Positions 2 to 59,064 of a stretch of 64,000 nucleotides of DNA are shown here, piece by piece (within the stretch, counting starts at the first letter, position 1; the number at the start of each line of letters is the position of its first letter). A program made the position numbers and the translations under genes. The DNA is from Minisyncoccia bacterium (lineage in GTDB: Bacteria; Patescibacteriota; Minisyncoccia; Phycocordibacterales; Phycocordibacteraceae): assembly GCA_038912545.1 (NCBI GenBank), contig JBCLFD010000001.1:18956-82955 (forward strand), written 5' to 3'. Below the pieces are notes generated by a model that was not told the origin of the DNA, did not search any database, and was given only the letters and a program-made list of their open reading frames with translations.

Positions 2-1120
2 GACGAGCTCTCCTCGTTCAAACCTCACCACATCGAGTGGAAAGAGGTGAAAGACGAGAAAGACCTCGACGGCGTTCCGGAGAAGTTCGTCAAGAAAGTC
101 GGCAAGGCGACGCACTACGTCGTGAAAGTGCCGAACGTCTACGACGGCTTAGCCTCTGGCGACACCGTTGCCATGGTGCTCGGCGGCTCGGGCGATTGCT
201 TGGCATACGCCCTTGCCAATCGTGGCGAAGAGCTCGGCGCGCGGGTTCTGCGTCTGCCGCCCTTCGTGCTTTCGAAAAAACGCGATGAGCGGCGTGCGGT
301 GCTTAGCGTAAAGGGGGAAGAGTCGAAAAAGAAAGACGACGACGCCACCTTGCTCGCTGAGCTCGCCTCCGGTCAGCCCCATCTGTTTTACACGGTGGAG
401 CAGGCCGACCGCGATCTTATCTGGCTTCGCGAGTGCCTTCGGGCACGGACGGACGCCATGAAGGCGCGCATCGCCTGCGAGCAACGGCTCCGCCAGCGGG
501 TTATCGGCTCGGTGTTCTGCACCGAAGCCGGAAAATTTCCCGCCGGCGGCATCGAGAAGTTTTTCGACGAGAAGAAAGCAAGCGATGTGATTCTCGTGGC
601 GCTCGAAAAAGAAGAAGCATCTGCCGAACGCTCACTTGCGAAGGCGACCGAAAAACTCGCCATCTACAGCGAAGTACTCGGCAAGGTCGAAGGCTGTGGA
701 GTGATGATTGCCTCGCGCATCATCGCCTCGGTCATCGACATCCGGCGTTTCGAAACGGATGCGAAGCTGAAGGCCTTCATGGGCGCCCACGTGCAGGAAG
801 ATGGCCGTTTCCCGCGCAAGCGCACAGGGACTGTCGCCAACTGGCACAACGACGCGCGGCAGGCGCTCTATCTCATCGGAGATCAGTTCAACAAGCGCCC
901 GAATTCGTACTGGGGAAAATACCAGCGTGCGATGAAGGCAAACTTGCGTGGCCGCCATCCGGAAGTGGTCGTCGAGAACGGCAAGAAACGTTACACCGAC
1001 GCGCACATCCTCAAAATGGCCAGCTGGCGGACGCTTACGCGTTTCATCGAATGGCTTTTCAAAGAGTGGTGGGCGCTGGAGCGGGCGCGTTCCGCGATTC
1101 CGCTTCGCAAGGCGGCGTAA
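2..1120 (+). CDS. IS110-family transposase (5'-partial; the frame is open to the window start)
   Basis: C-terminal region CGVMIASRIIASVIDIRRFETDAKLKAFMGAHVQEDGRF...RQALYLIGDQF matches the IS110/Piv transposase_20 domain pattern. There is no stop between base 2 and the listed Met at 47. Confidence 0.7.
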   Translation, partial: DELSSFKPHHIEWKEVKDEKDLDGVPEKFVKKVGKATHYVVKVPNVYDGLASGDTVAMVLGGSGDCLAYALANRGEELGARVLRLPPFVLSKKRDERRAVLSVKGEESKKKDDDATLLAELASGQPHLFYTVEQADRDLIWLRECLRARTDAMKARIACEQRLRQRVIGSVFCTEAGKFPAGGIEKFFDEKKASDVILVALEKEEASAERSLAKATEKLAIYSEVLGKVEGCGVMIASRIIASVIDIRRFETDAKLKAFMGAHVQEDGRFPRKRTGTVANWHNDARQALYLIGDQFNKRPNSYWGKYQRAMKANLRGRHPEVVVENGKKRYTDAHILKMASWRTLTRFIEWLFKEWWALERARSAIPLRKAA

Positions 1121-13527: not shown

Positions 13528-14505
13528 ATGCGATATGCGCTTCTGATAGGACTTATGCTCGTGGCGCCGATGATGGTGTCGGCGCAGTATATGACGAGTA
13601 CGGATCCATTCAACCTCACGGTCACGCCTCAGTATCCCGTACCGAATAGTTCTGTCACTCTCACCGCACTCTCTGCGGGCATTGATCTCGCGAACGCGAC
13701 AATGGATGTTTCTGCGAACGGTACGTCGGTCTACAAGGGCTCGGTACGCGCGGTTGATGTCCCAGTCCTAGGCGCCGGCGTGCTCATTAATATACGAGTA
13801 GTGATAACGAGCAATGGCGCGAGCGCGAGCCAGACGGTTTCTGTCCGCCCGCAGGACCTCGTGCTTATAACTGAACCGCTCGCGACCGCACCACCGCTCT
13901 ATCTCGGCAAAGCACTTCCGCCTCTCGGCGGGAGTGTGCGCATTGTCGCCGTAGCAGGATTTAAAAATGGAAGCGGTACCGCGCTTGACCCCGCGAAACT
14001 CTCGTATGCGTGGAAGGTGGACGACGCTCTCCAGGCGAATATGTCGGGTATCGGTAAGAGCGCGATTATCGTCGCGACACCGCTTCAATATCGCAATCGC
14101 AGTGTGTCGGTGGTCGTCCAGAGCCAAGACGGCTCTCTCGTGACCGGCGCATCGCTCTCGCTCGCCCCTCACGAACCGACCGTTCGTATTTATGAAAATG
14201 ACCCCCTGCTCGGCATCCGCTTTGACCGCGCACTATCGTCTTCATACTCCATCACTGATGCAGAATCCTCGCTCTATGCTGGCCTCTATTCATTCCCGAC
14301 TGGAGCGGGCACATCCGCGATTAATTGGTATCTAAATGGTGCACTCGCACAGAGCGGTACAACGATAACACTCCGTCCCACGGGGCTAGGGAAGGGGAAT
14401 GCCTCTCTTTCGCTCGTCGCGGCAATAGGCGACCTTGTGAGCGCAACACAATCGCTTCAAATATTATTCGGGGCGAAGCCCACATCTAATTTCTTCGGCT
14501 TATGA
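13528..14505 (+). CDS. secreted protein (signal peptide, Ala/Ser/Val-rich, beta-rich)
   Basis: MRYALLIGLMLVAPMMVSAQ signal peptide. The listed N-terminal extension is basic read-through, so the start is trimmed. Confidence 0.5.
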   Translation: MRYALLIGLMLVAPMMVSAQYMTSTDPFNLTVTPQYPVPNSSVTLTALSAGIDLANATMDVSANGTSVYKGSVRAVDVPVLGAGVLINIRVVITSNGASASQTVSVRPQDLVLITEPLATAPPLYLGKALPPLGGSVRIVAVAGFKNGSGTALDPAKLSYAWKVDDALQANMSGIGKSAIIVATPLQYRNRSVSVVVQSQDGSLVTGASLSLAPHEPTVRIYENDPLLGIRFDRALSSSYSITDAESSLYAGLYSFPTGAGTSAINWYLNGALAQSGTTITLRPTGLGKGNASLSLVAAIGDLVSATQSLQILFGAKPTSNFFGL

Positions 14506-15458
14506 TGAGAAAAACTTTTATAACTTTGTCGCTCTTCGCCATCGCATTTGTGGCAACGTCCGCGCACGCTCAAGAATTCATCCCGCTCGCGCCCATTCCG
14601 GGCCTCACCACAGGAATAACAGCAGATCAGGCGGGTCTCGCGAACTTTTTAAATAATCTTTACAAATATCTCATTGGTCTTGCTGCTGTTATCGCGGTGG
14701 TAGAGATTATCTGGGGCGGTCTCCTCTATTCCACACAGGATGTGCCGGGATCGAAAACGAATGGAAAAGAAAAAATCCAGAATGCACTCCTCGGCCTCGT
14801 CCTCGTCCTCTCCCCCGTCCTTGTCTTCTCCATCATCAATCCAAGCATCCTGAATCTCTCCATCAATCTCCCGGAGCTCGACACAAAATCCGGCGCTCCG
14901 AATCAAACAGGGGGTACGGGAGGAACTGGGACTCAAACTGTTGATGCTACAACTAACTGTACTGTGACGGGCACGATTGGCATCCTCCAGATTGCGACTT
15001 GTCCAACAGAGTCTGCATCAAAAACATGGGGGGCGACGTGTACGTGGGGTAATTTGTCGTCAATTGAACCCCTCACGATTAGTGCTGGTGGTGCCGTTGC
15101 ACAAAATACAATTTCCTGCTCTAACAAAAACAGTTATGTATTCATAGAGACGATAGGTGTAGTAAGCTTTTCGAAAGCAATAAATACTCTTCGTCCATTA
15201 GCCCAGACTGTCGACAATTCCGAGAATGCATCATCTGCAATTTCGTTTGCGAATATTTGTAATGCAGCAGGACGAAAAACATGCATAAGTGACATCCCTA
15301 AGGTTACTTTTTCCGTTGAGTGTTTACCAAAACCAATGACACAAATTCCTGCCTCATCCGGAGGAAGCGGCAAATGCTATAAAGAGACACTTACTTGTGA
15401 AAATGTAAGCGGAAATACAAAGTGTGTTGCAACTCCTGATTGGACACCATTCCAATAA
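14502..15458 (+). CDS. TrbC/VirB2-like pilin-fold protein with Cys-rich C-terminal extracellular domain
   Basis: Signal peptide, two hydrophobic helices (YLIGLAAVIAVVEIIWGGLLY; ALLGLVLVLSPVLVF), then a ~190-aa domain with 12 Cys. Confidence 0.5.
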   Translation: MMRKTFITLSLFAIAFVATSAHAQEFIPLAPIPGLTTGITADQAGLANFLNNLYKYLIGLAAVIAVVEIIWGGLLYSTQDVPGSKTNGKEKIQNALLGLVLVLSPVLVFSIINPSILNLSINLPELDTKSGAPNQTGGTGGTGTQTVDATTNCTVTGTIGILQIATCPTESASKTWGATCTWGNLSSIEPLTISAGGAVAQNTISCSNKNSYVFIETIGVVSFSKAINTLRPLAQTVDNSENASSAISFANICNAAGRKTCISDIPKVTFSVECLPKPMTQIPASSGGSGKCYKETLTCENVSGNTKCVATPDWTPFQ

Positions 15459-15460
15459 AT

Positions 15461-17095
15461 ATGCGACGGACACTTACCATCATCGCAGTTGTGATAGTCC
15501 TCGGAGGACTTGTGGTGTGGGCGTATTTCTCATTCTTCGCAAATCAGGCGGGCATTACGGTCGCGCCAACGGGTACGACGAGCTTGCCGGGAGCAGGGCA
15601 GGCGACTACCCCCACTCAGGGCGAGACGGCGTCTCCGGCGACGACTGCGGTCACTACAGCGGCTGGTGCACGGTTGGTGAAGATAAGTGCGGGGCCGGTG
15701 GTGCCGAGCCCTATTGTTTACAGAAGCACGTCAACAACAACACCAGGATTCTTTGTAAACTACATTGAGCGACAGAGCGGAAACGTTTTCTCCTATTCGT
15801 CTGTCACCCGTTCATCCACGAGAATAAGCAACAAAACCGTTCCGGGAATCCAGTTGGCAGTGTGGCTTCCGAGTGCCCAGACGGCGTTTGTGCGCTATCT
15901 ATCGGGCACTGATTCTACAACTATCAATACGTACGCTCTGAACGCGGACGGTTCCGACGGTTTCTTTTTGGAACAAAATCTCGCTGATATCGCCGTTTCT
16001 TCAACCAGTATTTTGACTCTCGCGTCTGGCGTAACCGGCTCGGTCGCGTCCACCCGCCGCACCGATGGGACGCGCTCGGTTGAAGTGTTTTCTTCGCCAC
16101 TCTCCTCTCTCCGAGTCGCCCTCGCCGGTAAGAATCGTTATTTCGCCTTTACCAATCCTTCGTCATCTCTCGGTGGAGCGGTATTTCTTGTTGATGGTGC
16201 TGGTCGGCTCTCTCGCATCGCCGGTCCTCTAAACGGACTCGTCGCTCTCCCGAGCCCTTCGGGCGCGACCGTGCTCGTGAGCTATGTGGTCGGCGGCGCG
16301 ATGCAGATGGAGCTTGTGAACACCGCGACCGGCGCCGTGACTCAACTCCCGGTCGCTACTATCGCCGACAAATGTGTCTGGGCTGCTGACAACTTGGCGG
16401 TCTATTGTGGTATCCCAATGAACCCTCCGGCGAACTACACCTACCCAGACGACTGGTACCAGAGCGCAATTTCATTCTCTGATCGTATCTGGAAGATTAA
16501 TGTCGCCGGACGCTATGCTGAATTGGTCCTTGATTTCTCAAAAGAAAATGATATCGCTCTTGATGCTGTGGCTCTTTCTATTGATTCTGCCGGAACGGCA
16601 CTCTCCTTCATCAATAAAATAGACGGCTCTCTCTGGGTATATTCACCACAAATATCGTATCAAGAAGCATCGCAAACATCGCCAGCCCCAACCATTCAAG
16701 TGCCAGTTTCACAAAAAACACCATCAATCAATCAAAATACACCCTCCTCAACAAACAATTCAGAAGTAAATACCCCTCCCGTTTCAACAGGAGCACAAAC
16801 TAACAATCAACTAACGCCAAATCCAACAACATCCGTACCGTCAAGCGTTTCTGTAAACATACAAGGTTTTGCGTTTAATCCCTCAACACTGACAATTAAA
16901 AAAGACACAAAGGTTACGTGGACTAATAATGACAGTGTAATTCATACTGTAACTTCTGATTCCGGTAATCTTCTAAATTCGCCAACACTTTCTCCTGGAA
17001 CATCTTTCAGTTTTACTTTCGCCAACACTGGTTCACTAACCTATCATTGTGCTGTTCACCCGACTATGAAAAGCACAATTATTGTTGAAAACTAA
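15461..17095 (+). CDS. membrane-anchored protein with C-terminal amicyanin/plastocyanin-like cupredoxin domain
   Basis: N-terminal TM, Thr/Ser-rich linker. C-terminus KVTWTNNDSVIHTV...YHCAVHPTM carries type-1 Cu ligands His, Cys-x2-His-x2-Met. Confidence 0.65.
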   Translation: MRRTLTIIAVVIVLGGLVVWAYFSFFANQAGITVAPTGTTSLPGAGQATTPTQGETASPATTAVTTAAGARLVKISAGPVVPSPIVYRSTSTTTPGFFVNYIERQSGNVFSYSSVTRSSTRISNKTVPGIQLAVWLPSAQTAFVRYLSGTDSTTINTYALNADGSDGFFLEQNLADIAVSSTSILTLASGVTGSVASTRRTDGTRSVEVFSSPLSSLRVALAGKNRYFAFTNPSSSLGGAVFLVDGAGRLSRIAGPLNGLVALPSPSGATVLVSYVVGGAMQMELVNTATGAVTQLPVATIADKCVWAADNLAVYCGIPMNPPANYTYPDDWYQSAISFSDRIWKINVAGRYAELVLDFSKENDIALDAVALSIDSAGTALSFINKIDGSLWVYSPQISYQEASQTSPAPTIQVPVSQKTPSINQNTPSSTNNSEVNTPPVSTGAQTNNQLTPNPTTSVPSSVSVNIQGFAFNPSTLTIKKDTKVTWTNNDSVIHTVTSDSGNLLNSPTLSPGTSFSFTFANTGSLTYHCAVHPTMKSTIIVEN

Positions 17096-17187: not shown

Positions 17188-17940
17188 TTACTCGGGAATG
17201 GTAAGAGATTTTGAGGCAGAACCCTTGGCGAGAGAGCGGCGCATATGCAATTCTTGGAGAGATCCGACGAGGTTTGTGGTGATGAAGTACAAAGCGAGGG
17301 CACTTGAAGTTGTATAGGAAATAATGCCAATAAGGAAGGGAAATACATATTTGAGCTGGAGGCCCATAATCTTTTGAAAGTCACCCTGCATACCGCCCGT
17401 GCTGGAGGGTTTCATCGTTCCTGCGAGAGAGAGATGTGCTTGAAGATATTGTGTGAGCCCTGCAAGTACTGCGAGCACAATACTCTTGCCCGTTACCGCA
17501 ATAATACCAAGTAGATTGAGCGATACCTCATCAGGAACTGGAGTAAATGAATATAAAAGTGCCGTATTTGCTCCCGAAAACGGTTCATAAAAGAATACCC
17601 AATAGAGAGCGAGAAGAACAGGGATTTGAATAAACACCATTAAGATACTGGCAAAAGGATTCACTTTTGCCTCTTTATAAAGAGAGAGTGTCGCTAGTGC
17701 TTCTTTTTCTTTATTCCCTTTGTGGATTTCCTTGAGCTCTTTTAGTTTCGGTTCCAAGTCTCTCATAGCGTGCTGTGTGCGCGCTGCAGCGAGAGAGAAT
17801 GGAAGAAGAATAAGCCGAATGACTATCGTGAGGAGGATAACGGCGATGCCGATGTCCGAACCTGGTACAAGCGCCACAAGCGCCACAAGCGCATTGTAGA
17901 TTGGATCATAAAAAACGGCGTGGAAAAATGCAGATATCAT
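17188..17940 (-). CDS. yidC: membrane protein insertase YidC (short form)
   Basis: YidC/Oxa1 core TM pattern, plus synteny with rnpA-rpmH-dnaA. Confidence 0.85.
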   Translation of the reverse strand: MISAFFHAVFYDPIYNALVALVALVPGSDIGIAVILLTIVIRLILLPFSLAAARTQHAMRDLEPKLKELKEIHKGNKEKEALATLSLYKEAKVNPFASILMVFIQIPVLLALYWVFFYEPFSGANTALLYSFTPVPDEVSLNLLGIIAVTGKSIVLAVLAGLTQYLQAHLSLAGTMKPSSTGGMQGDFQKIMGLQLKYVFPFLIGIISYTTSSALALYFITTNLVGSLQELHMRRSLAKGSASKSLTIPE

Positions 17941-17950
17941 GTGGTAAGAA

Positions 17951-18250
17951 TCACGAAATAAGTTTAGTAAGTTCTAATTGCATTTCATCATACCTCATGT
18001 CCTTAACTCCCGCTCGCGGAAAGACAATTAGGCCCTTAGGGAGAGGAAGTGTCCGAAGAACTTCCAGTATTCGCCGTTTGATACGGTGGCGCGTCACTGC
18101 GAGGCGGGCTATCTTCTTCGACACGACGACGGCATAACCGGATTCTGTTTCGGACCGAACGATGGAAAAATGTGTAGAGGAATGGCGTTTGCCTGATTTT
18201 AATGTAGTCTCAAAAACCGTGCGAGAGAGCCGATTTCGGCGCTTAAACAC
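17951..18250 (-). CDS. rnpA: ribonuclease P protein component
   Basis: HFSIV...GYAVVVSKKIARLAVTRHRIKRR. GTG start chosen 7 nt after the rpmH stop; the longer listed ORF runs through rpmH. Confidence 0.7.
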   Translation of the reverse strand: MFKRRNRLSRTVFETTLKSGKRHSSTHFSIVRSETESGYAVVVSKKIARLAVTRHRIKRRILEVLRTLPLPKGLIVFPRAGVKDMRYDEMQLELTKLIS

Positions 18251-18257
18251 AGGACAT

Positions 18258-18395
18258 TCAGGCGGTGAGCTGGGTACGGCTGGCGCGACGCCGGCGGCGT
18301 ACAATCTTACGCCCAGAACTCGTCTTCGCACGCACCCGAAATCCGTGGGTCTTCGCGCGTTTTCTCTTTTTTGGTTGATAGGTTCGTTTAGCCAT
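18258..18395 (-). CDS. rpmH: 50S ribosomal protein L34 (not in the ORF track, under 60 aa)
   Basis: Manual translation of the minus strand gives [45 protein letters not shown]. Confidence 0.8.
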
Positions 18396-18486
18396 GATGA
18401 AATATAGTTATACACACCATACTAACAGGTTCTCCCCAAAACGCTAGAGTGCTTGTCTTTTTGAGAAGCGTATAATCAAGAACACT

Positions 18487-19839
18487 ATGGATAAAAGAAA
18501 TACGAAGGAGCTCTGGGAATATATCCTCGCCCAGGTTGAGCTCTCTGTTTCTCCTGCCAACTTCAATACCTGGTTCCACAACAGTTTTATCGTTAAAATC
18601 GGCGATGATGGAGTCGTCCATCTTGGGGTGCCAAGTCAGTTCTTCAAAGATTGGTACACAAAAAAATTTCATTCGCTCTTGCTCAAAATCCTGCGCGACA
18701 TTTCTTATGAATTCCGAAACATAGAGTATGTAATCATTAAGGATGAGCGCCGAAAGGCGTCCAGGGAGGTTAAGAATACGTGGGGGGCGCTTGAGCTTCC
18801 GCTAGATGAGTTCTATATCAACCGAGCAGATAATTTAAATCCGCGATACACCTTTGACACGTTCGTCGTGGGCGACTTTAACAGTCTCGCGCACGCGGCG
18901 TCTCAGGCGGTGATTAATCGTCCGGGTATTACCTACAATCCTCTTTTTGTGTACGGCGACACCGGCAGAGGGAAGACCCATCTCATACAGGCGATCGGGA
19001 ATCAATTTAAAAAACAGTATCCGGGCCGAAAAGTATTTTATCTCACTTCGGAAAAATTTACCGTTGATTACACCGACTCGGTGCAGGCGGGGACCGCTAA
19101 CCGTTTTAAAGATAAGTATCGACAGTACGATCTTCTTATTATGGACGATGTTCAGTTCTTATCAAAAAAAGAAAAAACTGAGGAGGAACTATTTCATCTC
19201 TTCAATGCGCTTCATGATGCAAATAAACAGATAATTTTCTCTTCGGATCGCCCCCCAATCGCAATCCCCGATATCGCCGAACGGCTGAAGGGGCGCTTGG
19301 CGAGCGGAATGTCAGTAGATATTGGCGAACCGGATTCTGAAAGCCGTATGGCGATCGCACGGAAGAAGGCCGCCTCGCATGGAGTTATGCTTTCCGACGA
19401 AGTAATAGAGTACGTCGCGGTCTCTCTTTCGGGCTCAATACGTGAATTGGAGGGTTTGGTGAATAATCTTATTTGTAGTGCTCAAGTCAAGGGTGTTGCT
19501 CCGGATATTGCGGAGGTGCGTAAATCACTCCGTTCGTTCACTCGTCCGCAGAAAAACATCTCTGTAAAAAATATTGTGGATAAGGTTGCGGAGTTCTATG
19601 GTATTAATGAAGAGAGTATTTATGAAAAAACCCGTAGAAGGGAGGTGGTGCGCCCTCGCCAAGTTATTATGTATCTTCTAAGGGAAGATTTTAATATTTC
19701 ATATCCAACTATTGGTTCAAAAATCGGCGGTCGCGACCACACAACAGTTATCCACTCATGTGAGAAGATAAAGCGTGAGGTGCTTGTGGATAACGTCTTA
19801 GCAAAAGAGATTCAGAATATACGAAGTCTTCTTGTATGA
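18487..19839 (+). CDS. dnaA: chromosomal replication initiator DnaA
   Basis: AAA+ GDTGRGKTHL, and C-terminal DNA-binding domain (RDHTTVIHSCEKI). Confidence 0.95.
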   Translation: MDKRNTKELWEYILAQVELSVSPANFNTWFHNSFIVKIGDDGVVHLGVPSQFFKDWYTKKFHSLLLKILRDISYEFRNIEYVIIKDERRKASREVKNTWGALELPLDEFYINRADNLNPRYTFDTFVVGDFNSLAHAASQAVINRPGITYNPLFVYGDTGRGKTHLIQAIGNQFKKQYPGRKVFYLTSEKFTVDYTDSVQAGTANRFKDKYRQYDLLIMDDVQFLSKKEKTEEELFHLFNALHDANKQIIFSSDRPPIAIPDIAERLKGRLASGMSVDIGEPDSESRMAIARKKAASHGVMLSDEVIEYVAVSLSGSIRELEGLVNNLICSAQVKGVAPDIAEVRKSLRSFTRPQKNISVKNIVDKVAEFYGINEESIYEKTRRREVVRPRQVIMYLLREDFNISYPTIGSKIGGRDHTTVIHSCEKIKREVLVDNVLAKEIQNIRSLLV

Positions 19840-34106: not shown

Positions 34107-35954
34107 CTACCGCCCTCTATTCTGATAATTGTTTTGAATTTTTTCTTTAACTTGATAACCATAATTATTTTCATTTTGTCTGCGTGATTCAGAATTACTT
34201 TCGGTATGATCAGAAGGCTTCCTGGTATACGGAAGAGTTATAGGTAATGTGATAGGTAGTATAATTGGTTTTATAATGGTTGGAATTGGGGAAAATGTTG
34301 GCAAAGGAAGTATTGTTGGTGCTGGCATTATGATGGGCGTAGGATCTGGAGATAAAACTGGCACAGTAGTTGTGGGTGTGGTTGTTATAGGAGTTGTTGT
34401 AACTGGTGCAATTGTGGTTGGTGGTGTTGTAGTAGCAACAGGCGTGGTAATTGGGGTTGGGTATAGTTGATTCGCCATAGTGATTGCTTTGTCAGCTTTA
34501 ACCAAACCATAACCGTGCCATTTATCATACCCAACTGTTCCAATATCTATGGCGGAACTATCAAGAATATTTCTAATTTCATCATTTATTCTTCCGTTAC
34601 CATTTGAGTCAGTGATGTTCATTCCCATAAGTAACGCTGCTACACCGGTAACATGAGGAGCTGCCATAGATGTTCCATTGTATAAAATATTACCTCCACC
34701 AAGTTTTGTTGAGTTAATATTTACTCCAGGTGCTGATAGTTCTATTTTATTACCCGTTGCGGAAAAACAGGGACGAGCATTTGATGAATCAATTGCAGCC
34801 ACAGCAATTACTGAAGAATACATCGCTGGATACTCTGTAGTATTTGTATCGCCAAGACAAGTTCCAGAATTACCAGCCGAGGCCACATTGATAATTCCCT
34901 TGGCTTCTAATGCGGTAAAAGCTGACTCAAGTCCATTGCCAGGATTGGTTGGTGTACCATAACTACTATTTGTAATTTGTATACCGTTATTGACTGACCA
35001 TTGTAACGCTGCAATAATATCACTCGTATATCCCTTTCCTTGAGCATCTAAAACTTTCAAAGCATAAATTTTTACATCAGGTGCTACACCAATAACACCA
35101 ACATTGTTTTTTATAGCCGCAATAGTTCCAGCAATGTGTGTACCATGCCCATTATCATCAAGTGGATCCGCTGTACCATTTACGAAATTAAACCCACCAG
35201 CATAATTTAAATTTAAATCCGTATGGTTGTAGTCAATACCAGTATCTAGGACTGCCACTTTAATTGTCTTTCCTGTTTGACCAGAAGCATGCGCAGAATC
35301 AGATCCAATGTGCAAAACACCCCAAGTATTTGTGTATTCTTGAACAGCACGAATGTAAACTAACTCGTCTATTTCAACAGAAGCAACATTAGGATCTTTA
35401 GAAAGATTTATTACTTCTGAATCAGAAACTTCTGCAGCAATAGCTGGAATAATGTTAAACGTGTGTTTTCTTTTTCCACCTCTAGAAAAAATAAAATCCT
35501 CGTCTGCTTTAATTGGGTTTCTTTTATAGTTAATGATGACTCTTTTTGTAGTTGTAGGTGTAGAGGACACTGCAACATTTGTGGTTTGAGAATTAATTGG
35601 GCGATTTTCTAAAAATGAAGGAGACTCTAATTTGGCAATGGGGTTAGCATTAGTAGATTTAGTTAACGTATTTAATATACTTAAAGTTTTTGGACCGACT
35701 ACACCAACGGTTTCAACGCCATATTTTTTTTGAAAAGCTGTAACAGCTTTTTTTGTTAGTAGGCCATAATAACCAGTAACCAGACCTTCTGGATATATAG
35801 AAATATCTGTAGACAAAAGTTTTTGTAAATTTGAAACATCTTCACCTCTAGATCCAAGAGTAAGATTTCTTGTAAAGGTTGCAGAATCTGCCAAAACTGA
35901 TGAGGTAAATAAAAATGGAACTACTAATAAAAATGGTAATAATTTTTTTTTCAT
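34107..35954 (-). CDS. subtilisin-family (S8) serine protease with N-terminal peptidoglycan-binding domain and Thr/Pro-rich C-terminal linker; the gene is AT-rich
   Basis: Signal peptide. PG_binding_1 (LQKLLSTDISIYPEGLVTGYYGLLTKKAVTAFQ). Asp/His/Ser triad (DTGIDYNH, HGTHIAG, GTSMAAPHV). TTPPTTIAPVTTTP repeats. Confidence 0.8.
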   Translation of the reverse strand: MKKKLLPFLLVVPFLFTSSVLADSATFTRNLTLGSRGEDVSNLQKLLSTDISIYPEGLVTGYYGLLTKKAVTAFQKKYGVETVGVVGPKTLSILNTLTKSTNANPIAKLESPSFLENRPINSQTTNVAVSSTPTTTKRVIINYKRNPIKADEDFIFSRGGKRKHTFNIIPAIAAEVSDSEVINLSKDPNVASVEIDELVYIRAVQEYTNTWGVLHIGSDSAHASGQTGKTIKVAVLDTGIDYNHTDLNLNYAGGFNFVNGTADPLDDNGHGTHIAGTIAAIKNNVGVIGVAPDVKIYALKVLDAQGKGYTSDIIAALQWSVNNGIQITNSSYGTPTNPGNGLESAFTALEAKGIINVASAGNSGTCLGDTNTTEYPAMYSSVIAVAAIDSSNARPCFSATGNKIELSAPGVNINSTKLGGGNILYNGTSMAAPHVTGVAALLMGMNITDSNGNGRINDEIRNILDSSAIDIGTVGYDKWHGYGLVKADKAITMANQLYPTPITTPVATTTPPTTIAPVTTTPITTTPTTTVPVLSPDPTPIIMPAPTILPLPTFSPIPTIIKPIILPITLPITLPYTRKPSDHTESNSESRRQNENNYGYQVKEKIQNNYQNRGR

Positions 35955-42808: not shown

Positions 42809-42921
42809 TCTATTGTAGGATTGTGGTTGCCATATTTGACTTATTATCTCAATAATATCATTTTTCAGCTCACTAAACCATTGCATTAATTTTATACCTT
42901 GTGTATACTATAGTTATCACT

Positions 42922-43614
42922 ATGAAATCAACACAGCAACAAAATATGTTCGGTTTATCTAATAAACAGACTGGTTATTCTGTTTATAACGAGGATGCAA
43001 AAAAACGAGCAAAGCAAAATACACTCTCGGAACTTTATCCTAAATTGCCGAACAAAAAATTTGATGTAATTTATGCTGATCCACCTTGGGATTATAATGG
43101 TAAGTTGCAATTTGATAAAAGTAGTACAAATGTAGAAAATCTGGATTTGTCGCGGAAGATATTTATCAGTTCGGCTTCATTTAAATATCCGACACTAAAA
43201 ACAACTGAACTAATGAAATTACCTGTTCAAGAAATTGCAAAAGGTGATTGCTTATTATTCATGTGGACATCAAATCCACATTTGGCTCAAGCGATAGAAC
43301 TTGGTAATGCCTGGGGTTTTGATTATAAAACTGTTGCTTTTGTTTGGGATAAAATGAATCACAATCCTGGGCAATACACACTTTCAAATTGTGAGATATG
43401 TCTAGTATTCAAAAGAGGCAAGATACCAAGACCACGCGGAGCAAGAAATATAAAACAGTTGGTTAGAAGTCCGAGAAAAAAACACAGCGAGAAACCAATG
43501 GAGGTAATTCAAGCAATAGAAAAAATGTTTCCTAATCAAGAACGCATCGAATTATTTGCAAGACGAAAAACGGACGGTTGGTCAGTTTGGGGATTAGATG
43601 TGTTTAACGAGTAA
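42922..43614 (+). CDS. MT-A70-family N6-adenine DNA methyltransferase (R-M system M subunit)
   Basis: DVIYADPPWDYNGK (DPPW motif IV), MT-A70-like fold order. AT-rich. ATG at 42922 preferred over the listed GTG at 42901. Confidence 0.75.
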   Translation: MKSTQQQNMFGLSNKQTGYSVYNEDAKKRAKQNTLSELYPKLPNKKFDVIYADPPWDYNGKLQFDKSSTNVENLDLSRKIFISSASFKYPTLKTTELMKLPVQEIAKGDCLLFMWTSNPHLAQAIELGNAWGFDYKTVAFVWDKMNHNPGQYTLSNCEICLVFKRGKIPRPRGARNIKQLVRSPRKKHSEKPMEVIQAIEKMFPNQERIELFARRKTDGWSVWGLDVFNE

Positions 43615-43624
43615 AACAAATAGT

Positions 43625-44236
43625 CTACATCAGCAAACGCTTCAATTTCTTATTGAAATGGTCAACTAGAGATTTTCCATTTAACGAATTACTCCACATA
43701 AAGAAATGGCCAGAATGGCCTGTATACCAACAGTGAATTTCTCTTACTCTTTTTGGATCTCTAGCAATATCACCTTGAAATACGACCCAAAAAGGTAAAA
43801 CATTCTGACCAAGTTTTCCTTGTTCTCTTAATATCTTCAATAGACCCGGGGTAAAAAACTTATTGGATCTTTCATGGGCATTTCCTCTACCAGCTTTTCT
43901 TGGCTTTCCTTCTACCCACCCGTCTTGTCTTTTAACTTCCACATAAAGAGTCTTTTTAGTCTTTAGATTATCAATAGCAAAATCTGGCACTACTCCATGA
44001 ACCCAAGTTTCGTTCGGATTATAAATTGCAGATAAAGTTTCTTTGCTGAGTTTTATTTTTGAATAGATATCTTTGAATTCTCGTGGTTTAGAACGAACTC
44101 TAAAATCGGTACCCTTGAATTCTTTTGAGAGTATTTCATAAAAATTTTTCTCAGCAATCCCAGCCTTACCTCCGCTAGCATTTTGCCAATTCTCTCTTTT
44201 TCGTAATGCTTTTGTTCCCATAAATTTATTTTTCAA
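43625..44236 (-). CDS. putative Type II restriction endonuclease (PD-(D/E)xK)
   Basis: VPDFAIDNL...YVEVKRQ fits PD...ExK. Convergent with the MTase, directly downstream of and overlapping a C-protein gene. Confidence 0.55.
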   Translation of the reverse strand: MKNKFMGTKALRKRENWQNASGGKAGIAEKNFYEILSKEFKGTDFRVRSKPREFKDIYSKIKLSKETLSAIYNPNETWVHGVVPDFAIDNLKTKKTLYVEVKRQDGWVEGKPRKAGRGNAHERSNKFFTPGLLKILREQGKLGQNVLPFWVVFQGDIARDPKRVREIHCWYTGHSGHFFMWSNSLNGKSLVDHFNKKLKRLLM

Positions 44237-53532: not shown

Positions 53533-53617
53533 GCCCGGGTGGCGAAATTGGTAGACGTATCACCTTGAGGTGGTGACGCCTGTAATGGGCATGGAGGTTC
53601 AAGTCCTCTCCCGGGCA
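53533..53617 (+). tRNA. tRNA-Leu (anticodon GAG), class II
   Basis: Hand fold. GCCCGGG/CCCGGGC acceptor, loop TTGAGGT, long variable arm, T-arm GGAGG-TTCAAGT-CCTCT. Confidence 0.85.
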
Positions 53618-53650
53618 CAAAAAGAACGCCGAAAGGCGTTTTCTTTTTGT
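53618..53650 (+). terminator. Rho-independent terminator (GAACGCC-gaaa-GGCGTT + TTCTTTTT)
   Basis: GNRA-loop hairpin plus T-run directly after the tRNA-Leu. Confidence 0.55.
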
Positions 53651-53708
53651 GCTGTAATTTAGCTTGTCATGAGCGAAGTCGAAATCGGAATTAAAACTGC
53701 TATAGTAA

Positions 53709-54086
53709 TTGCATATGGAAACAAATAAAAACAATGTACTTATTATTGGTCTTCTTACCCTCATGCTCGGTCTCGTCATCGGATACTTTGTCGGTACAAG
53801 TCGTCCTAATGGAATGATGGGTTACAACACCAACGCTCCGACTACTATGCACGGTGCAATGGGTGGAATGATGGCTGGCTTGGAGGGCAAGACGGGAGAC
53901 GCTCTTGGTTTAGCATTCCTTGATGGAATGATTATTCACCACGAAGGAGCAGTGGAGATGGCAACCGTAATTCTTCAAGACACAAAACGACCAGAACTTT
54001 TCAAGCTCGCCAACGACATTATCACTGCTCAAACGCAAGAGATTGGAATGATGGAACAGTGGCGTAAGGATTGGTTCAACAAATAA
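53709..54086 (+). CDS. DUF305-domain protein (metal/copper-resistance-associated)
   Basis: N-terminal TM; HHEGAVEMA and later Q..EI..M motifs typical of DUF305. Confidence 0.65.
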   Translation: MHMETNKNNVLIIGLLTLMLGLVIGYFVGTSRPNGMMGYNTNAPTTMHGAMGGMMAGLEGKTGDALGLAFLDGMIIHHEGAVEMATVILQDTKRPELFKLANDIITAQTQEIGMMEQWRKDWFNK

Positions 54087-54107
54087 TTCTATGCAGAAAA
54101 ACTACTT

Positions 54108-54497
54108 ATGAACAATTCAAAAATCATAGAATGGGTTTTGCGAATCGCCGTATTCGGTACATTTTTTGGACACGGCGTATTTGCGTTACAGGGAAAAGAA
54201 AAGTGGATTCAGTGGATAATGGACTTTGGTGGCTGGGACATAGTTCTAGCTACACAGCTTTTGTTTGCCGTTGGACTTCTTGATGTAGTGGTTGGTCTGA
54301 TTGTGCTCTTTAGGCCAATTCGTGCAGTTTTGCTTTGGGCTATAATATGGGCATCTTGGACCGCATTTATGCGTGTTCTACCTTTTATTGGAGATCCCGT
54401 CTGGGATTTCGTGGAACGATGGGCAAATATAGGCGCGCCATTGGCCCTACTCCTTCTTCTTGGTTGGCCAAAAAACTGGAGAGAATGGTTCAAATAA
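54108..54497 (+). CDS. DoxX-family membrane protein
   Basis: 4 TM segments, RIAVFGTFFGHGVFAL N-terminal helix characteristic of DoxX. Confidence 0.6.
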   Translation: MNNSKIIEWVLRIAVFGTFFGHGVFALQGKEKWIQWIMDFGGWDIVLATQLLFAVGLLDVVVGLIVLFRPIRAVLLWAIIWASWTAFMRVLPFIGDPVWDFVERWANIGAPLALLLLLGWPKNWREWFK

Positions 54498-54570
54498 GAA
54501 ATAACGGCACATATATTAAGGGCTCGAAACGCATAGCGTTTCGAGCCCTTGCCGACCCCAAATCTTGGGG

Positions 54571-54741
54571 TCAACGGAGTCCGAAGACCCAGTTCCAATC
54601 AATGTTGATGTAGAGAGTGGCGAGAACGATGCCCACTACGACCAACATCAAGTCATTTCGGGTCATCCTCCCCAGGCATGGGACCTTCTGGTCCCACCAG
54701 TTCTGACGGAACTGGTTTTCACGATAGTCTCTCATATCCAT
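54571..54741 (-). CDS. small (56 aa) membrane protein not in the ORF track
   Basis: Manual minus-strand translation gives MDMRDYRENQFRQNWWDQKVPCLGRMTRNDLMLVVVGIVLATLYINIDWNWVFGLR. GGAGGAG RBS 4 nt upstream; hairpin terminator downstream. Confidence 0.4.
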   Translation of the reverse strand: MDMRDYRENQFRQNWWDQKVPCLGRMTRNDLMLVVVGIVLATLYINIDWNWVFGLR

Positions 54742-54834
54742 AACTCCTCCAAATGTTGAACCAGAAGTTATATGATAGCACTATCCGTATAAGAAGTCAA
54801 TAGCACCTAAAAACGAGGTGTATACTAGGGTTCT

Positions 54835-55371
54835 ATGGCTTTATTTACTGGCAAAGGCGATGGAGGTACGACAAAGGTTTTTGGCTGTAACCAACAGAGG
54901 ATTTCTAAATCGTCAGAATTACCCGAGGCGCTCGGCGCGTTGGATGAGTTGAATACCTATCTTGGATTTGTAAAAATGCGTGCAACGGGGTCGCTACACA
55001 TTGCAAAAGAAGTTCGCGCGGTGCAAGAAAATCTTTTTATCATCCAAGCGCAAACGGCGGGCGCGGATAAAAAATTAGCACCCACGATAGTGGGGGAGAT
55101 GGAAAAGTTTATTGGAGACATAGAAAAAGAAATTCCGCCGATTACCGGTTTCTCTATTGCCGGCGGTACCGAACTCTCTGCGATTCTAGACGTTGCGCGC
55201 ACTATTTCTCGACGCGCTGAACGCCGACTCATCGCGGTAGAAGAGAGCGGGTTGCGCACTATGCCACCCGAGACCAAAGCATATATGAACCGCCTTTCCT
55301 CACTCCTCTTCGCACTCGCCCGCCTCGCGAATCACGAGCAGGGCGTGAAAGAGGAAAACCCGCGGTATTAG
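54835..55371 (+). CDS. PduO-type ATP:cob(I)alamin adenosyltransferase
   Basis: MALFTGKGDGGTTKVFG...ALDELNTYLGF matches Cob_adeno_trans. Confidence 0.8.
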   Translation: MALFTGKGDGGTTKVFGCNQQRISKSSELPEALGALDELNTYLGFVKMRATGSLHIAKEVRAVQENLFIIQAQTAGADKKLAPTIVGEMEKFIGDIEKEIPPITGFSIAGGTELSAILDVARTISRRAERRLIAVEESGLRTMPPETKAYMNRLSSLLFALARLANHEQGVKEENPRY

Positions 55372-56084
55372 TGATTCGTGTGCTCCGCGTGCAAGCCGAT
55401 TTCGTGGATAGAACGGTTGCGATGCACTAACTCATCGTTACGAACCGAACAGAAGAATTCATATTCGGAACGTGGGTGTCGCCCGTACCACGCGAGGAAT
55501 TCGCTCGTGATAGAACGTTCTCGTAACGTGTGTTCATTTTCCTTAAGGAAGCGCGAATATTGATCAAAAGCATGCTGCTCAAAGAGATAGTTCGTTTCAA
55601 GCGACCAGCGCGGACAGACGAGGTAAAGCAGGTACGAAATCCAGAAATAGAAGAACGCAAAGAACATCGGAACGAAGGTATAACGGAAGAACCCAGTGCG
55701 CGAGTGTGTGCGGGCGAGTGCAGATATTACCACCACATGCATCGTCTCGTTGTCGCCAGCGAAACGGACGAAACGCGAAACGGTTGAAAGTCGTAGTGCC
55801 CGCGTCTCGTCCGCGTAAAAGAGTGTAAGCAAGGTAAAGATTGCTGAGTCCCACGAGTGGTAGGGGACACGCGCAATCACCTCTATGGCACGAAACTTCA
55901 GATACGAGGGTTTGTTACCATAGAAAATATTTCCGCACGCTATAAGGAATCCGCCGAACAGGCGCGGGAAGAGTGCGGGATGATAATTATCATACGGCGC
56001 TGCATAGTCGGCGCGTGCCGTATCGTCGTTGAGCGACTCTACAAGCTGTTCGAAATCGGCCTGTTCATGAAGCATCAGATGCAC
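55368..56084 (-). CDS. alternative-oxidase-like di-iron carboxylate protein (AOX/PTOX family)
   Basis: Four-helix ExxH-type ligands: IEVIARVPYH, GDNETMHVVV (compare NERMHL), LETNYLFEQHAFDQY, LHAEHTNH. Confidence 0.55.
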   Translation of the reverse strand: MHLMLHEQADFEQLVESLNDDTARADYAAPYDNYHPALFPRLFGGFLIACGNIFYGNKPSYLKFRAIEVIARVPYHSWDSAIFTLLTLFYADETRALRLSTVSRFVRFAGDNETMHVVVISALARTHSRTGFFRYTFVPMFFAFFYFWISYLLYLVCPRWSLETNYLFEQHAFDQYSRFLKENEHTLRERSITSEFLAWYGRHPRSEYEFFCSVRNDELVHRNRSIHEIGLHAEHTNH

Positions 56085-56157: not shown

Positions 56158-56230
56158 GGCGGCTATGGTGTAACGGTTAACACTGGAGCTTGTGGAGCTC
56201 TCAATTCGGGTTCAATTCCCGATAGCCGCC
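56158..56230 (+). tRNA. tRNA-His (anticodon GTG) with encoded G-1
   Basis: Hand fold. Extra 5' G pairs with discriminator C73; loop TTGTGGA; T-arm TCGGG-TTCAATT-CCCGA. Confidence 0.85.
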
Positions 56231-56271
56231 CTAAACGTTTGTGTTAGCATAGCGCTACAATGCTTTCGCAT

Positions 56272-56913
56272 ATGAAAACACTTTTTTACGGCACTCTGCT
56301 TATTATTCTCATCGGATTCGGCGGGTTCATGTACCGCAACGCCGTGGAGCGCTCTTCACAACCGATTGCCTGTCCGATGGATGCAAAAAAGTGTCCAGAC
56401 GGCACTGAGGTCGCACGCATCGGTCTTTCCTGTACGTTCTCTGCATGCCAGCCGCCGAATGTAACACTGCCGGACGTTGGCATTTCTTATGCCATACCCG
56501 AAGGATTCGTGCTGACGACACTGTCGGACGGCGCGAGCGTTGTTGAGTACGAAATGCCCGGCCAGACTCCAGAGGAACCGTCCGGCATCGTGGTCCGCCG
56601 ATACGCGATTCCCGCATCGTCAACGGCACTCGCGACTATCCAACAAACCGCAATCGGGGGCGCCTCCGGCGAGCCAGTACCAGCCACGTTATTCTCGTCA
56701 TCAATCATAGATGGACGCCGCTTCACCGTTGTTTCTATAGAGCGGTTTGAAGGAGTGATTACCACATCCTATTATCTTGCGCGCGGAACCGACGTACTCC
56801 GCTTTGACGCGATTGATCGCGGTACCGATTGGACCAATCCGCAATTGGATATTTCAACGCTCCCCGCGCACAAGGCACTGGTGAAGCTACTTGGTGGACT
56901 GCAAGGCATATAG
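56272..56913 (+). CDS. membrane-anchored protein of unknown function
   Basis: MKTLFYGTLLIILIGFGGFMY TM anchor, Cys-containing extracytoplasmic domain. Confidence 0.4.
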   Translation: MKTLFYGTLLIILIGFGGFMYRNAVERSSQPIACPMDAKKCPDGTEVARIGLSCTFSACQPPNVTLPDVGISYAIPEGFVLTTLSDGASVVEYEMPGQTPEEPSGIVVRRYAIPASSTALATIQQTAIGGASGEPVPATLFSSSIIDGRRFTVVSIERFEGVITTSYYLARGTDVLRFDAIDRGTDWTNPQLDISTLPAHKALVKLLGGLQGI

Positions 56914-56933
56914 GGAAGTGGTATGATGACCTT

Positions 56934-57716
56934 ATGCATGACTTCTTCGGTAATAACGGCGCCCGCATCGCCATCGTCGGCACGCTCGCTATCCTCTCGC
57001 TCTTTCTTCTTGCGCAGACGGTGAATATCGCGCAGACCTTCGGTCGTCCTGGTGTGCCTGCCACCGATACGATTACGGTGACCGGACAGGGCGAGGCAAC
57101 CTTGGCGCCAGACGTCGCGCGCGTCTCCTTCTCGGTAGAGAACACTGCCGAAACCGTCTCTGACGCACAGACGGCGACGACTAAGCAGGCGAATTCCGCG
57201 ATTGACCTCGTGAAAAAGCAGGGCGTCGCGGATAAGGACGTGAAGACGCTCTCGTATAACATCTCGCCACAGTATTCATATTCAGATTGTCCTTCGGGCG
57301 CATATTGCCCAACACGCTCGCCGAAAGTGACGGGCTACACGGTGTCCGAGACAGTGCAGGTGACGGTGCGCGACTTGACGAAAGTCGGCGACCTCTTGGT
57401 AGGACTCGGGAAGCTGGAAGTGCAGAACCTGAACGGCCCCGCATTCGCGCTTGATGATTCAAGCGTCGGTTACGACGCCGCGCGCGCCGACGCAATCGCG
57501 AAGGCGAAAGCGCAGGCAGGACTCCTCGCGAAACAACTCGGCGTGCGTCTCGGCAAGATTGTGAACTTCAGCGAATCCTCGGGCGGATATTCGTATCCGA
57601 TGATGTACGGCCTTGGCGCCAGTATGTCCGAAAAATCATCTGGACCAACACCAGACATCCAACCGGGCGAGAACACCTACAACGCTTCGGTCTCCATCAC
57701 CTACTCAATTCGTTAA
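56934..57716 (+). CDS. SIMPL-domain (DUF541) periplasmic protein
   Basis: TVTGQGEATLAPDVARVSFSVE...ADAIAKAKAQAGLLAKQLGVRLGKIVNFSES matches SIMPL. Confidence 0.7.
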   Translation: MHDFFGNNGARIAIVGTLAILSLFLLAQTVNIAQTFGRPGVPATDTITVTGQGEATLAPDVARVSFSVENTAETVSDAQTATTKQANSAIDLVKKQGVADKDVKTLSYNISPQYSYSDCPSGAYCPTRSPKVTGYTVSETVQVTVRDLTKVGDLLVGLGKLEVQNLNGPAFALDDSSVGYDAARADAIAKAKAQAGLLAKQLGVRLGKIVNFSESSGGYSYPMMYGLGASMSEKSSGPTPDIQPGENTYNASVSITYSIR

Positions 57717-58017: not shown

Positions 58018-58629
58018 ATGGACGAAAACCAAGATGAAATGGGCATGGCAGATATCGCGCCGTCTGTCATTAAAGAAGTGCGTGACGAAACAGCGCCGAA
58101 AGAAGAAGATGCTCGCTGGTACACCATTCACACGTACGCCGGCTATGAGAATGCGGTGGAGCGCAATTTGAAACAGCGTATTGAATCGCTTGGTATGGAG
58201 AATAAGATTTTTGATGTCATCGTCCCGACCGAGAAGAAAATCCGCGTGAAGGGCGGGAAGCGCTTTGTTGAGGAGGAGAAGATTTATCCGGGCTACATCC
58301 TCGTGCGGATGATAGTGGATGACGATTCGTGGTTCGTGGTGCGCAATACGCCAAGAGTTACCGGATTCGTCGGGAGCGGTAACACGCCGGTGCCGATGGA
58401 GGAGGGCGAGGTCGCGACACTCACGAAACGCATGCATGCAGAGGCACCGAAGCACCGCATTGATCTTGTGAAGGACGATCCTGTCGTCATTGCCGACGGC
58501 CCGTTTAAAGATCTTGAGGGTAAAGTTGGAGAGATAGATGAGGACCGCGGGAAGGTGAAGGTTATGGTCTCTATGTTCGGTCGCGAAACTCCCGTTGAAT
58601 TAGACTTTTTGCAAATTAGGAAACTCTAG
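58018..58629 (+). CDS. nusG: transcription termination/antitermination factor NusG
   Basis: WYTIHTYAGYENAV NGN domain, C-terminal KOW (GPFKDLEGKVGEIDEDRGKVKVMVSMFGRETPVEL). Confidence 0.9.
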   Translation: MDENQDEMGMADIAPSVIKEVRDETAPKEEDARWYTIHTYAGYENAVERNLKQRIESLGMENKIFDVIVPTEKKIRVKGGKRFVEEEKIYPGYILVRMIVDDDSWFVVRNTPRVTGFVGSGNTPVPMEEGEVATLTKRMHAEAPKHRIDLVKDDPVVIADGPFKDLEGKVGEIDEDRGKVKVMVSMFGRETPVELDFLQIRKL

Positions 58630-58647
58630 CGTAAAGTCACATTCATC

Positions 58648-59064
58648 ATGGCAACTGTAGTAAAAAAGATTAAACTCCAAATCCCCGGTGGGAAGGCGAC
58701 GCCTGCGCCTCCTGTCGGTACCGTTCTCGGACCCGCCGGCGTGAACATCGGTCAGTTCGTGAGCCAGTTCAATGAACAAACCAAAGATAAGCAGGGAATG
58801 ATTATCCCCGTAGACCTCTCGGTCTATGACGACCGCTCGTTCACTTTCGTTCTCAAGAATCCGCCGGCGTCGCGTCTCATATTGAAGGCAGTCGGTATTG
58901 AAAAGGGTTCGGGCAAGGCACCGTCAAAGGTGGGCGAGATTACCAAGGCGCAGATATCGGCGATTGTGGACGAGAAGATTCCGGACATGAATGCCTCGTC
59001 AAAAGAAGCAGCCGCGCGCACCATCGCGGGCACCGCGCGAAGCATGGGCGTGGAAGTGAAATAA
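58648..59064 (+). CDS. rplK: 50S ribosomal protein L11
   Basis: [28 protein letters not shown] matches L11. Confidence 0.9.

Follow-up and report, generated by a model that had tools for sequence, protein, structure and literature searches.

The closest described relatives of the protein that is the subject of this work are the di-iron quinol oxidases of Pfam family PF01786, that is, the alternative oxidases (AOX) of mitochondria and proteobacteria, represented below by the trypanosome enzyme (TAO), and the PTOX enzymes (IMMUTANS and its cyanobacterial and cyanophage counterparts). According to a published report (PMC7507113), Patescibacteria (the Candidate Phyla Radiation, CPR) do not have complete electron-transport chains. 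Surveys that counted their oxygen reductases covered heme-copper and bd oxidases only and found them in less than 1% of genomes (PMC7507113; PMC9938205); the figure for single-cell genomes was 0.6%, and five metagenome-assembled genomes had cytochrome o (PMC7507113, PMC9938205). A single CPR AOX hit was mentioned in passing in one phylogeny, where it was read as a transfer from proteobacteria (PMC9540462). Searches of the literature on AOX in Parcubacteria, Patescibacteria, or CPR, on quinones in CPR, and on AOX/PTOX in Actinobacteria returned nothing relevant beyond these three papers (PMC9540462, PMC7507113, PMC9938205). Here, we describe an AOX-like gene (positions 55368-56084, minus strand) in a 64-kb stretch of DNA from a Minisyncoccia bacterium (contig JBCLFD010000001.1); this whole stretch is referred to as the window. 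The gene is the last of five open reading frames (ORFs) in a region at positions 53709-56084. Sequence comparison and structure modelling indicate that its product, 238 aa long as an ORF, is a true, very divergent di-iron member of the AOX/PTOX superfamily.

Pfam AOX was the sole family matched by the 238-aa protein (29.6 bits versus a gathering score of 22.7, E = 7e-7), and the match spanned residues 111-224 only, i.e., the C-terminal half. No COQ7, rubrerythrin, or other Pfam family was matched at E ≤ 0.1. The ORF opens with GTG and homologues start at an ATG that corresponds to its codon 4 (56075); the true start is probably this ATG, which gives a protein of 235 aa. A search of a collection of 5.8 billion proteins, in which PF01786 assignments on the homologues were precomputed, returned 1,169 homologues at E ≤ 1e-3. 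The best 120 of the 1,169 are 64-96% identical to the AOX-like protein, and every named one among these 120 belongs to Patescibacteria (Kaiser-, Yonath-, and Nomurabacteria, Paceibacterota, and Minisyncoccota). The homologues are labeled "alternative oxidase" (NCBI) or "ubiquinol oxidase" (JGI). The clade has thus already been named by annotation pipelines, yet the searchable literature has next to nothing on it. Its carriers number at least 231 species-representative genomes, with more than 1,100 protein clusters, and, judging by the homologues recovered, the clade appears to be confined to, and widespread in, Paceibacteria-type Patescibacteria.

Conservation was followed in two alignments of 35 sequences each. 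The first (A1) comprised clade members of 61-96% identity and contained 68 invariant positions, including E68, N112-E113-T-M-H116, E169, Y176, and N216-D217-E218-x-x-H221; this range of identities together with the 68 invariant columns points to purifying selection on the clade. The second, bridging alignment (A2) extended through the distant tail of the family, with sequences 19-71% identical to the window protein. The only columns invariant in A2, which covers the three clades A, B, and C described below, are E68, N112, E113, H116, E169, Y176, D217, E218, and H221, an arrangement that lies far beyond chance. The predicted iron ligands are accordingly found in the order E...ExxH...E...ExxH (E68, E113/H116, E169, and E218/H221), with Tyr176 seven residues after E169 (E169+7) and with N112 and D217 as second-sphere residues. 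A first-pass annotation of this DNA had named four ligand segments. Three of them contain the residues listed (E68 in IEVIARVPYH, E113/H116 in DNETMH, and E169 in FEQHAFDQY). The fourth, LHAEHTNH (residues 231-238), belongs to the C-terminal tail, which is not conserved; the real motif is NDELVH, N216-D217-E218-L-V-H221 in the window protein and NDE[LI][VI]H in the clade.

A profile built from A2 matched trypanosome AOX structures (3vv9, 9kun, and 9m2a) at E = 8.5e-10. In the resulting alignment, the family motifs pair with LETVAGVPG, ENERMHL, LEEEAVITY, and IRADEAEH of TAO, and every catalytic column is aligned. The TAO residues that are aligned (3VV9 numbering) are the ligands E123, E162, H165, E213, E266, and H269 and the catalytic Y220. 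Tyr176 of the window protein falls on the Y of LEEEAVITY, the catalytic tyrosine (Y220 in TAO, Y234 in PTOX). The same alignment relates other TAO positions to the window protein: R118 corresponds to K63 (invariant), A216 to A172, T219 to Q175, and Y246/W247 to W199/Y200. The substrate pocket is thus partly kept and partly altered relative to that of TAO. Two hydrophobic helices were found in the protein, at residues 36-55 and 137-158 (KD 1.35 and 1.83, respectively). The second aligns, in the A2 profile alignment, with the TAO segment that forms the membrane-binding helix alpha4; the presence of two such helices fits an interfacial membrane protein.

An AlphaFold2 model calculated from A1 (pLDDT 87.9, pTM 0.87) was confident and all-helical, with the six long helices and the four-helix bundle core expected of the AOX fold. 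When the model was compared with the PDB using Foldseek, the 13 best matches were all TAO chains (probability 1.00, TM-score 0.54-0.60, 218-240 aligned columns, 11-16% identity). All matches after TAO had a probability of 0.13 or less; among them, COQ7 (7sss_E) scored a TM of 0.31 at a probability of 0.13, ferritin 0.29, and R2lox 0.26. The first-pass annotation had proposed an AOX/PTOX-type di-iron protein and had named Coq7, rubrerythrin, and other ferritin-like families as those to be checked; the comparison with these families was negative by both sequence and fold, and the original proposal held. A comparison with viral models gave three confident matches (E = 3.7e-6 to 1.8e-3, 19-23% identity), including "Plastoquinol terminal oxidase [Synechococcus phage S-N03]", with E-values and identities better than those against TAO. 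The top ones are cyanophage proteins of the PTOX type (E = 3.7e-6 to 3.9e-4, 22-23% identity).

The position of the protein within the superfamily was studied using an exhaustive profile search of 1.84 billion representatives. Only 417 clusters (50% identity) were returned, of which 16 make up a compact core (E ≤ 1e-30), followed by a tail of proteins of 220-350 aa. The helix-1 motif characteristic of AOX, AGVPG, occurred in 0 of the top 150 representatives, while AR.PY occurred in 98 of them. Three groups could be distinguished by their motifs. Group A is the CPR clade of the window protein (ARVPYHS, QDNETMHVVVI, FEQHAFDQY, and VRNDELVHRN). Group B is a short bacterial clade of 230-290 aa (ARVPYQA, QDNEQWHLLIL, EDHAEHEY, and IGxDERxHK), made up of 4,680 proteins of Acidimicrobiales/Ilumatobacteraceae. 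Group C comprises PTOX-type proteins of 280-350 aa, some of them from eukaryotic transcriptomes (ETIARVPYF, NELHHLLIM, and IRDDExEH). Pfam AOX scores were 25-38 bits for groups A and B and 100-120 bits for group C. In a rough neighbour-joining tree, computed over 167 columns of 19 sequences and for which a TAO fragment served as the outgroup, each of the three groups had 100% bootstrap support, and A joined with B at 91%. Mean identities were 29% between A and B, 27% between A and C, and 18% between A and TAO.

The window protein does not belong to the PTOX subfamily proper: its motifs resemble those of PTOX without being the same, the insertion that PTOX-type proteins carry ahead of the last helix (A2 columns ~405-436) is missing in groups A and B, and its clade is sister to B rather than nested in C. 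Nor does it belong to the mitochondrial-type AOX subfamily, given that it lacks AGVPG, that TAO is only 18% identical, and that TAO escapes detection by the sequence itself or by the CPR-clade profile. These results keep the protein in the superfamily but place it in neither the AOX nor the PTOX subfamily proper. Group A is a distinct clade, sister to the Acidimicrobiia clade and nearer to PTOX (27%) than to mitochondrial-type AOX (18%).

Family membership, the fold, the six ligands with the tyrosine and the second-sphere Asn and Asp, the hydrophobic helices, and conservation are supported directly by these results. From homology we infer O2 reduction, a quinol as the electron donor, and the physiological role, and we estimate at roughly 60% the probability that the AOX-like protein is a quinol:O2 oxidoreductase that does not pump protons and acts as an oxygen-scavenging or redox valve. 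Such a protein would be a di-iron carboxylate oxidase that is functional and attached to the membrane monotopically, at its interface. Electrons would enter in pairs from a membrane quinol, or from another lipophilic reductant resembling a quinol, seated in a hydrophobic pocket beside the Fe-Fe centre, and O2 would be converted to water without proton pumping. In a host without a respiratory chain, its role would be O2 scavenging and a redox-safety valve, not energy conservation. The redox genes that adjoin the gene in some relatives, described below, count in favour of a quinol oxidase.

Several observations weigh against this assignment. Likeness to characterised enzymes is low, the PTOX insertion is missing, and Phe83 stands in place of PTOX His151 in the A2 alignment. 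Solved AOX (TAO) was detected neither by the single sequence nor by the CPR-clade (A1) profile among PDB sequences at E ≤ 10, which shows that the AOX-like clade is very divergent. No characterised member of clades A or B was found in the searchable literature. The 40 largest other ORFs of the window, which are housekeeping or typical CPR genes, included no respiratory or quinone genes, and NDH-2 was likewise not found in the 64-kb window. Patescibacteria are also reported to be without complete electron-transport chains (PMC7507113), which makes the electron donor the weakest point of the assignment.

The same divergence would be accounted for by an AOX-fold membrane di-iron enzyme with another chemistry or substrate, such as a hydroxylase, a desaturase, or an oxidase acting on a non-quinol lipophile, e.g., a scavenged host lipid or isoprenoid; hydroxylation by Coq7 and by the AcsF cyclase at related di-iron sites would be comparable. 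A host lineage thought to have neither quinones nor an electron-transport chain (PMC7507113), a window without quinone-related genes, and the changes of pocket residues relative to TAO (R118 to K63, T219 to Q175) also speak for such an enzyme. We nevertheless consider it unlikely, since all residues common to AOX and PTOX are invariant, including the catalytic tyrosine (TAO Y220, window Y176) and the ligand-adjacent Asn and Asp, and since COQ7 fits poorly both by fold and by sequence in the comparisons described above. To our knowledge, PF01786 contains no family that is other than a quinol oxidase, which also counts against a different chemistry. A quinol oxidase remains the assignment that we prefer.

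The genes around the AOX-like gene were interpreted by the first-pass annotation as partners of the oxidase. All five ORFs that it had listed in the region are present. Downstream of a tRNA-Leu(gag) gene (53533-53618, plus strand; ARAGORN) lie a DUF305 gene (53709-54086, plus strand), whose 125-aa product has an N-terminal transmembrane segment or signal anchor, and a DoxX-like gene (54108-54497, plus strand), coding for a 129-aa protein with four transmembrane segments. They are followed by a conserved terminator-like hairpin (54518-54550), which has a homologous counterpart in the relative L006 (loci from relatives' genomes are designated by L-numbers), a 56-aa ORF with a single transmembrane segment (54571-54741, minus strand), and a gene for a 178-aa PduO-type ATP:cob(I)alamin adenosyltransferase (54835-55371, plus strand). 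A tRNA-His(gtg) gene (56159-56231, plus strand; ARAGORN) diverges from the AOX-like gene and separates it from a conserved block of genes for a hypothetical protein, SIMPL, SecE, NusG, and L11, a synteny also seen in L006, L007, and L009. The AOX-like gene is on the strand opposite to the DUF305, DoxX-like, and PduO genes, and the four therefore do not form an operon. The PduO and AOX-like genes converge, with interlocking stop codons that overlap by 4 nt (55368-55371), and so are not co-transcribed.

Family assignments of the neighbours proved to be of unequal quality. The DUF305 call is solid (PF03713, E = 6.8e-19); the protein is also CopM-like at 5.5e-19, yet falls under the NCBIfam cutoff. 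The PduO call is equally solid (PF01923, E = 3.5e-38; TIGR00636, 134.9 bits versus an equivalog-domain cutoff of 108.45). Both had been made correctly at first pass. The DoxX call was not borne out: the 129-aa protein scored 15.4 bits (E = 0.03) against a gathering score of 23.6 for PF07681. Its 2,688 homologues are a family of small membrane proteins spread across the CPR, most of which match nothing in Pfam; PF07681 is carried by only a few of the 120 homologues listed. The 56-aa ORF matched no family in Pfam or NCBIfam scans and had no matches in 80 more distant loci. L006 and L090 retain it, at 57 and 55 aa, respectively; its two ends are conserved (DYRENQFRR.WW..K.P and W.WVFGLR), and there are 10-12 codon differences that are synonymous only. 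It is thus probably a real small membrane protein limited to close relatives.

The first two genes of the region form a variable cassette (53619-54517, plus strand) between the 3' end of tRNA-Leu(gag), which is its boundary, and the hairpin. In L006, whose AOX-like protein is 96% identical, the DNA is collinear with the window at ~90-92% nucleotide identity. In a blastn comparison, collinearity stops at 53618, i.e., exactly at the 3' end of the tRNA-Leu gene, and is back by 54571; the gap between these positions is 952 nt in the window, where it holds the DUF305 and DoxX-like genes, and 46 nt in L006, an indel of ~900 nt. L007 and L009 are also without the cassette, and L090 carries it at the identical position, along with ~2 kb of extra genes. 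In L091, a DoxX-like gene lies next to a glutaredoxin gene, with neither DUF305 nor AOX. When the flanks of the cassette were checked for insertion scars and mobility genes, hairpins only were seen, and no flanking direct repeats and no integrase. From these comparisons, the cassette is a strain-variable insertion and does not belong to the oxidase system.

To put the neighbours in a broader context, a survey was made of 80 species-representative loci, each taken with as much as 10 kb of flanking DNA on either side. PduO adjoins the AOX-like gene in 14-16 of the 80, always convergently and with a gap of no more than 25 bp. A DUF305 gene is found within 3 kb in two loci, which is about chance, and within ~5 kb in three. 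The DoxX-like gene, the 56-aa ORF, cyo genes, and heme genes were each seen in 0/80 loci. A Pfam scan of 148 immediate neighbours yielded PduO 13 times, EamA six times, and FAD-linked oxidase five times, and de novo clustering of 859 neighbouring ORFs revealed no recurrent immediate partner besides PduO. DUF305, considered as a recurrent partner, was rejected on its count within 3 kb. The AOX-like gene is a stand-alone unit beside a variable hot-spot, and its neighbours are there by insertion or lineage synteny and not as partners.

These data bear directly on the proposal made at first pass that the oxidase, DUF305 (as a copper-handling protein), DoxX, the 56-aa ORF, and PduO make up one oxidative/metal-stress locus. 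The genes are physically close in the window and L090 carries the same set, a DUF305 gene occurs in the wider vicinity in the three loci mentioned, and copper-related genes adjoin the AOX-like gene in a few relatives (L010 with a heavy-metal P-type ATPase, L050 and L068 with multicopper/NirK proteins). Against this stand the opposite strands and hence the lack of an operon; the absence of the cassette from the 96%-identical L006, where collinearity ends precisely with the tRNA-Leu gene, at its 3' end; the absence of the DoxX-like gene and the 56-aa ORF from all 80 loci and the chance-level frequency of DUF305; the restriction of PduO adjacency to one subclade; the below-threshold DoxX assignment; and the DoxX-like gene that, in L091, keeps company with glutaredoxin. 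The comparative context largely refutes a common stress locus, which we consider very improbable. The practical lesson in this case is that a variable cassette and lineage synteny happen to meet in what looked like a stress locus.

The PduO gene deserves separate consideration. Its expected role is the supply of adenosylcobalamin to B12-dependent enzymes, and we know of no link between PduO and AOX. In the Kaiserbacteria-like subclade, the two genes might nonetheless be functionally connected, either through common termination or antisense effects at the interlocked stop codons or through a corrinoid/redox link. The convergent arrangement, with its gap of no more than 25 bp, is kept down to ~64% protein identity, and in the window the stop codons overlap by 4 nt. 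Yet convergent genes are not co-transcribed, and PduO is not beside the AOX-like gene in the other ~64 loci, nor in L001-L005; it adjoins only genes whose products are at least 64% identical to the window protein, all of the Kaiserbacteria-like subclade. PduO adjacency is clade synteny, and a functional connection appears quite improbable. On the other side of the AOX-like gene, between tRNA-His and SecE-NusG-L11, genes for a conserved hypothetical protein of ~215 aa and then for SIMPL/DUF541 (56260-57716, plus strand) are syntenic with it in 9-13 of the 80 loci, again in the Kaiserbacteria-like subclade. The SIMPL protein has a weak, below-cutoff likeness to E. coli YggE, an "oxidative stress defense protein"; the proximity of the block is probably housekeeping synteny. 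Farther along, between NusG and L11, the window and its close relative L006 differ by a further small indel: L006 has an additional gene for a "23S rRNA intervening sequence protein" (PF05635; L006:809-1168), where the window has a spacer of only 18 nt (58629-58648).

In some relatives, the AOX-like gene does lie next to redox or metal genes. A complete operon of cyoABCD and a heme O synthase gene (UbiA/CyoE) is located directly downstream of it in a Paceibacterota genome with a 222-kb contig (L001:7074-11803 and L002:4494-9205), with an ArsR-type regulator upstream and a DUF488 gene between cyo and the AOX-like gene. The cyo operon as a general partner was rejected, having been found in 0/80 loci. 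Coproporphyrin-type heme biosynthesis genes stand by the AOX-like gene in L003, and genes for a cytochrome-b5/cytochrome-D1 protein and DsbD in L004 and L005. A gene for an FAD-linked oxidase of ~553 aa (FAD_binding_4 and FAD-oxidase_C, GlcD/D-lactate-dehydrogenase type) is directly upstream on the same strand in four loci (L075:3464-5131, L087:8262-9923, L088:5045-6727, and L078:18-815), and is divergent from the AOX-like gene in a fifth (L071:8281-9948). Together, the two genes form an apparent two-gene operon in a subset of Paceibacteria. The FAD-linked oxidase is a candidate electron-input enzyme. A gene for a NirK-like multicopper nitrite reductase is directly upstream in two Patescibacteria genomes (L050:8674-9936 and L068:237-1493) and is also present in L047 (~17555-18733). 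The best relative in the genome collection (L010, 73% identity) has a heavy-metal P-type ATPase with an HMBD upstream (L010:6205-8193); this gene and the DUF305 gene of the window show that metal-handling accessory genes land near the AOX-like gene differently in each strain. When the relatives' cyoABCDE, heme-biosynthesis, cytochrome b5/D1, FAD-oxidase, and NirK proteins were compared with the window using tblastn, there were zero matches.

CPR bacteria are widely described as fermenters ancestrally without electron-transport chains, and yet at least 231 species-level Paceibacteria-type genomes carry the di-iron oxidase clade with its catalytic residues intact. If the protein is active, it would explain the aerotolerance of CPR from soil, groundwater, and sand filters, and it would raise the testable question of where quinol comes from in an organism without known quinone synthesis. 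More broadly, Patescibacteria could possess in this clade a third class of oxygen reductases that has been overlooked and is far commoner than the heme-copper and bd enzymes counted so far. Its members would operate on quinols obtained from the host or from scavenged membrane lipids, or else on a reductant other than a quinol, which partners such as the FAD-linked dehydrogenase found upstream in some genomes would provide. We offer this idea tentatively and regard it as rather unlikely; if it is true, many "strictly fermentative" Paceibacteria would actively consume O2.

Several features elsewhere in the window were recorded. At its left edge, an IS110-family transposase gene (DEDD_Tnp_IS110 and Transposase_20) is found at 47-1120 (plus strand). 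The product of a gene at 15440-17095 (plus strand) is 551 aa long and carries at its C terminus a cupredoxin domain of the copper-binding plastocyanin/azurin type; the gene directly follows a gene for a type IV secretion system pilin-like protein (14502-15458), with a TraG-like ATPase gene at 11099-12913. A blue-copper domain is unusual for a reduced CPR genome. Between 34001 and 36000, the GC content drops sharply to 0.37, versus ~0.50 in the window, over a gene for a 615-aa subtilase with a peptidoglycan-binding domain (34107-35954, minus strand); this region may have been horizontally acquired. A probable type II restriction-modification pair (42901-44236) consists of an MT-A70 family methyltransferase (42901-43614, plus strand) and a MunI-like endonuclease (43625-44236, minus strand; PF11407, E = 5e-68).

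Among known systems, cytochrome bo3/o, present in few Patescibacteria, resembles the AOX-like protein in that it, too, has been put forward as a quinol oxidase that detoxifies O2 on its own in CPR bacteria with no full chain (PMC9938205, PMC7507113). It adjoins the AOX-like gene in one relative (L001), but is an unrelated heme-copper enzyme, is rare, and was not found in the 64-kb window. Mitochondrial/proteobacterial AOX (TAO, 3VV9) shares the fold of the window protein, which matched no other solved structure; its six Fe ligands and Tyr220 align with those of the window protein, whose two hydrophobic helices may bind the membrane as in TAO. The differences are in helix 1 (ARVPYHS in the window protein versus AGVPGMV in AOX) and helix 3 (FEQHA versus LEEEA), in an identity of 18%, and in the failure of the CPR-clade profile to detect TAO. 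PTOX shares with the window protein the pattern E / NExxH / E..HA...Y / DExxH, the helix-1 motif ARVPY, the Tyr at E+7, and the Asp before the last Glu; the latter two are, from mutagenesis, the residues essential in PTOX besides the ligands. It differs in identity (~27%) and in length (280-350 aa versus ~235 aa). The window clade has its own conserved two-helix N-terminal region, lacks the PTOX insertion, and stands apart from PTOX in the tree at 100% bootstrap support, and the host has neither photosynthesis nor plastoquinone. The uncharacterised Acidimicrobiia "alternative oxidase" clade (group B) is distinguished by its motifs and by an identity of 29%, and its hosts are aerobic actinobacteria with ordinary respiratory chains; it is the sister group (91%), with a like length, similarly low Pfam AOX scores, and the same ligand columns.

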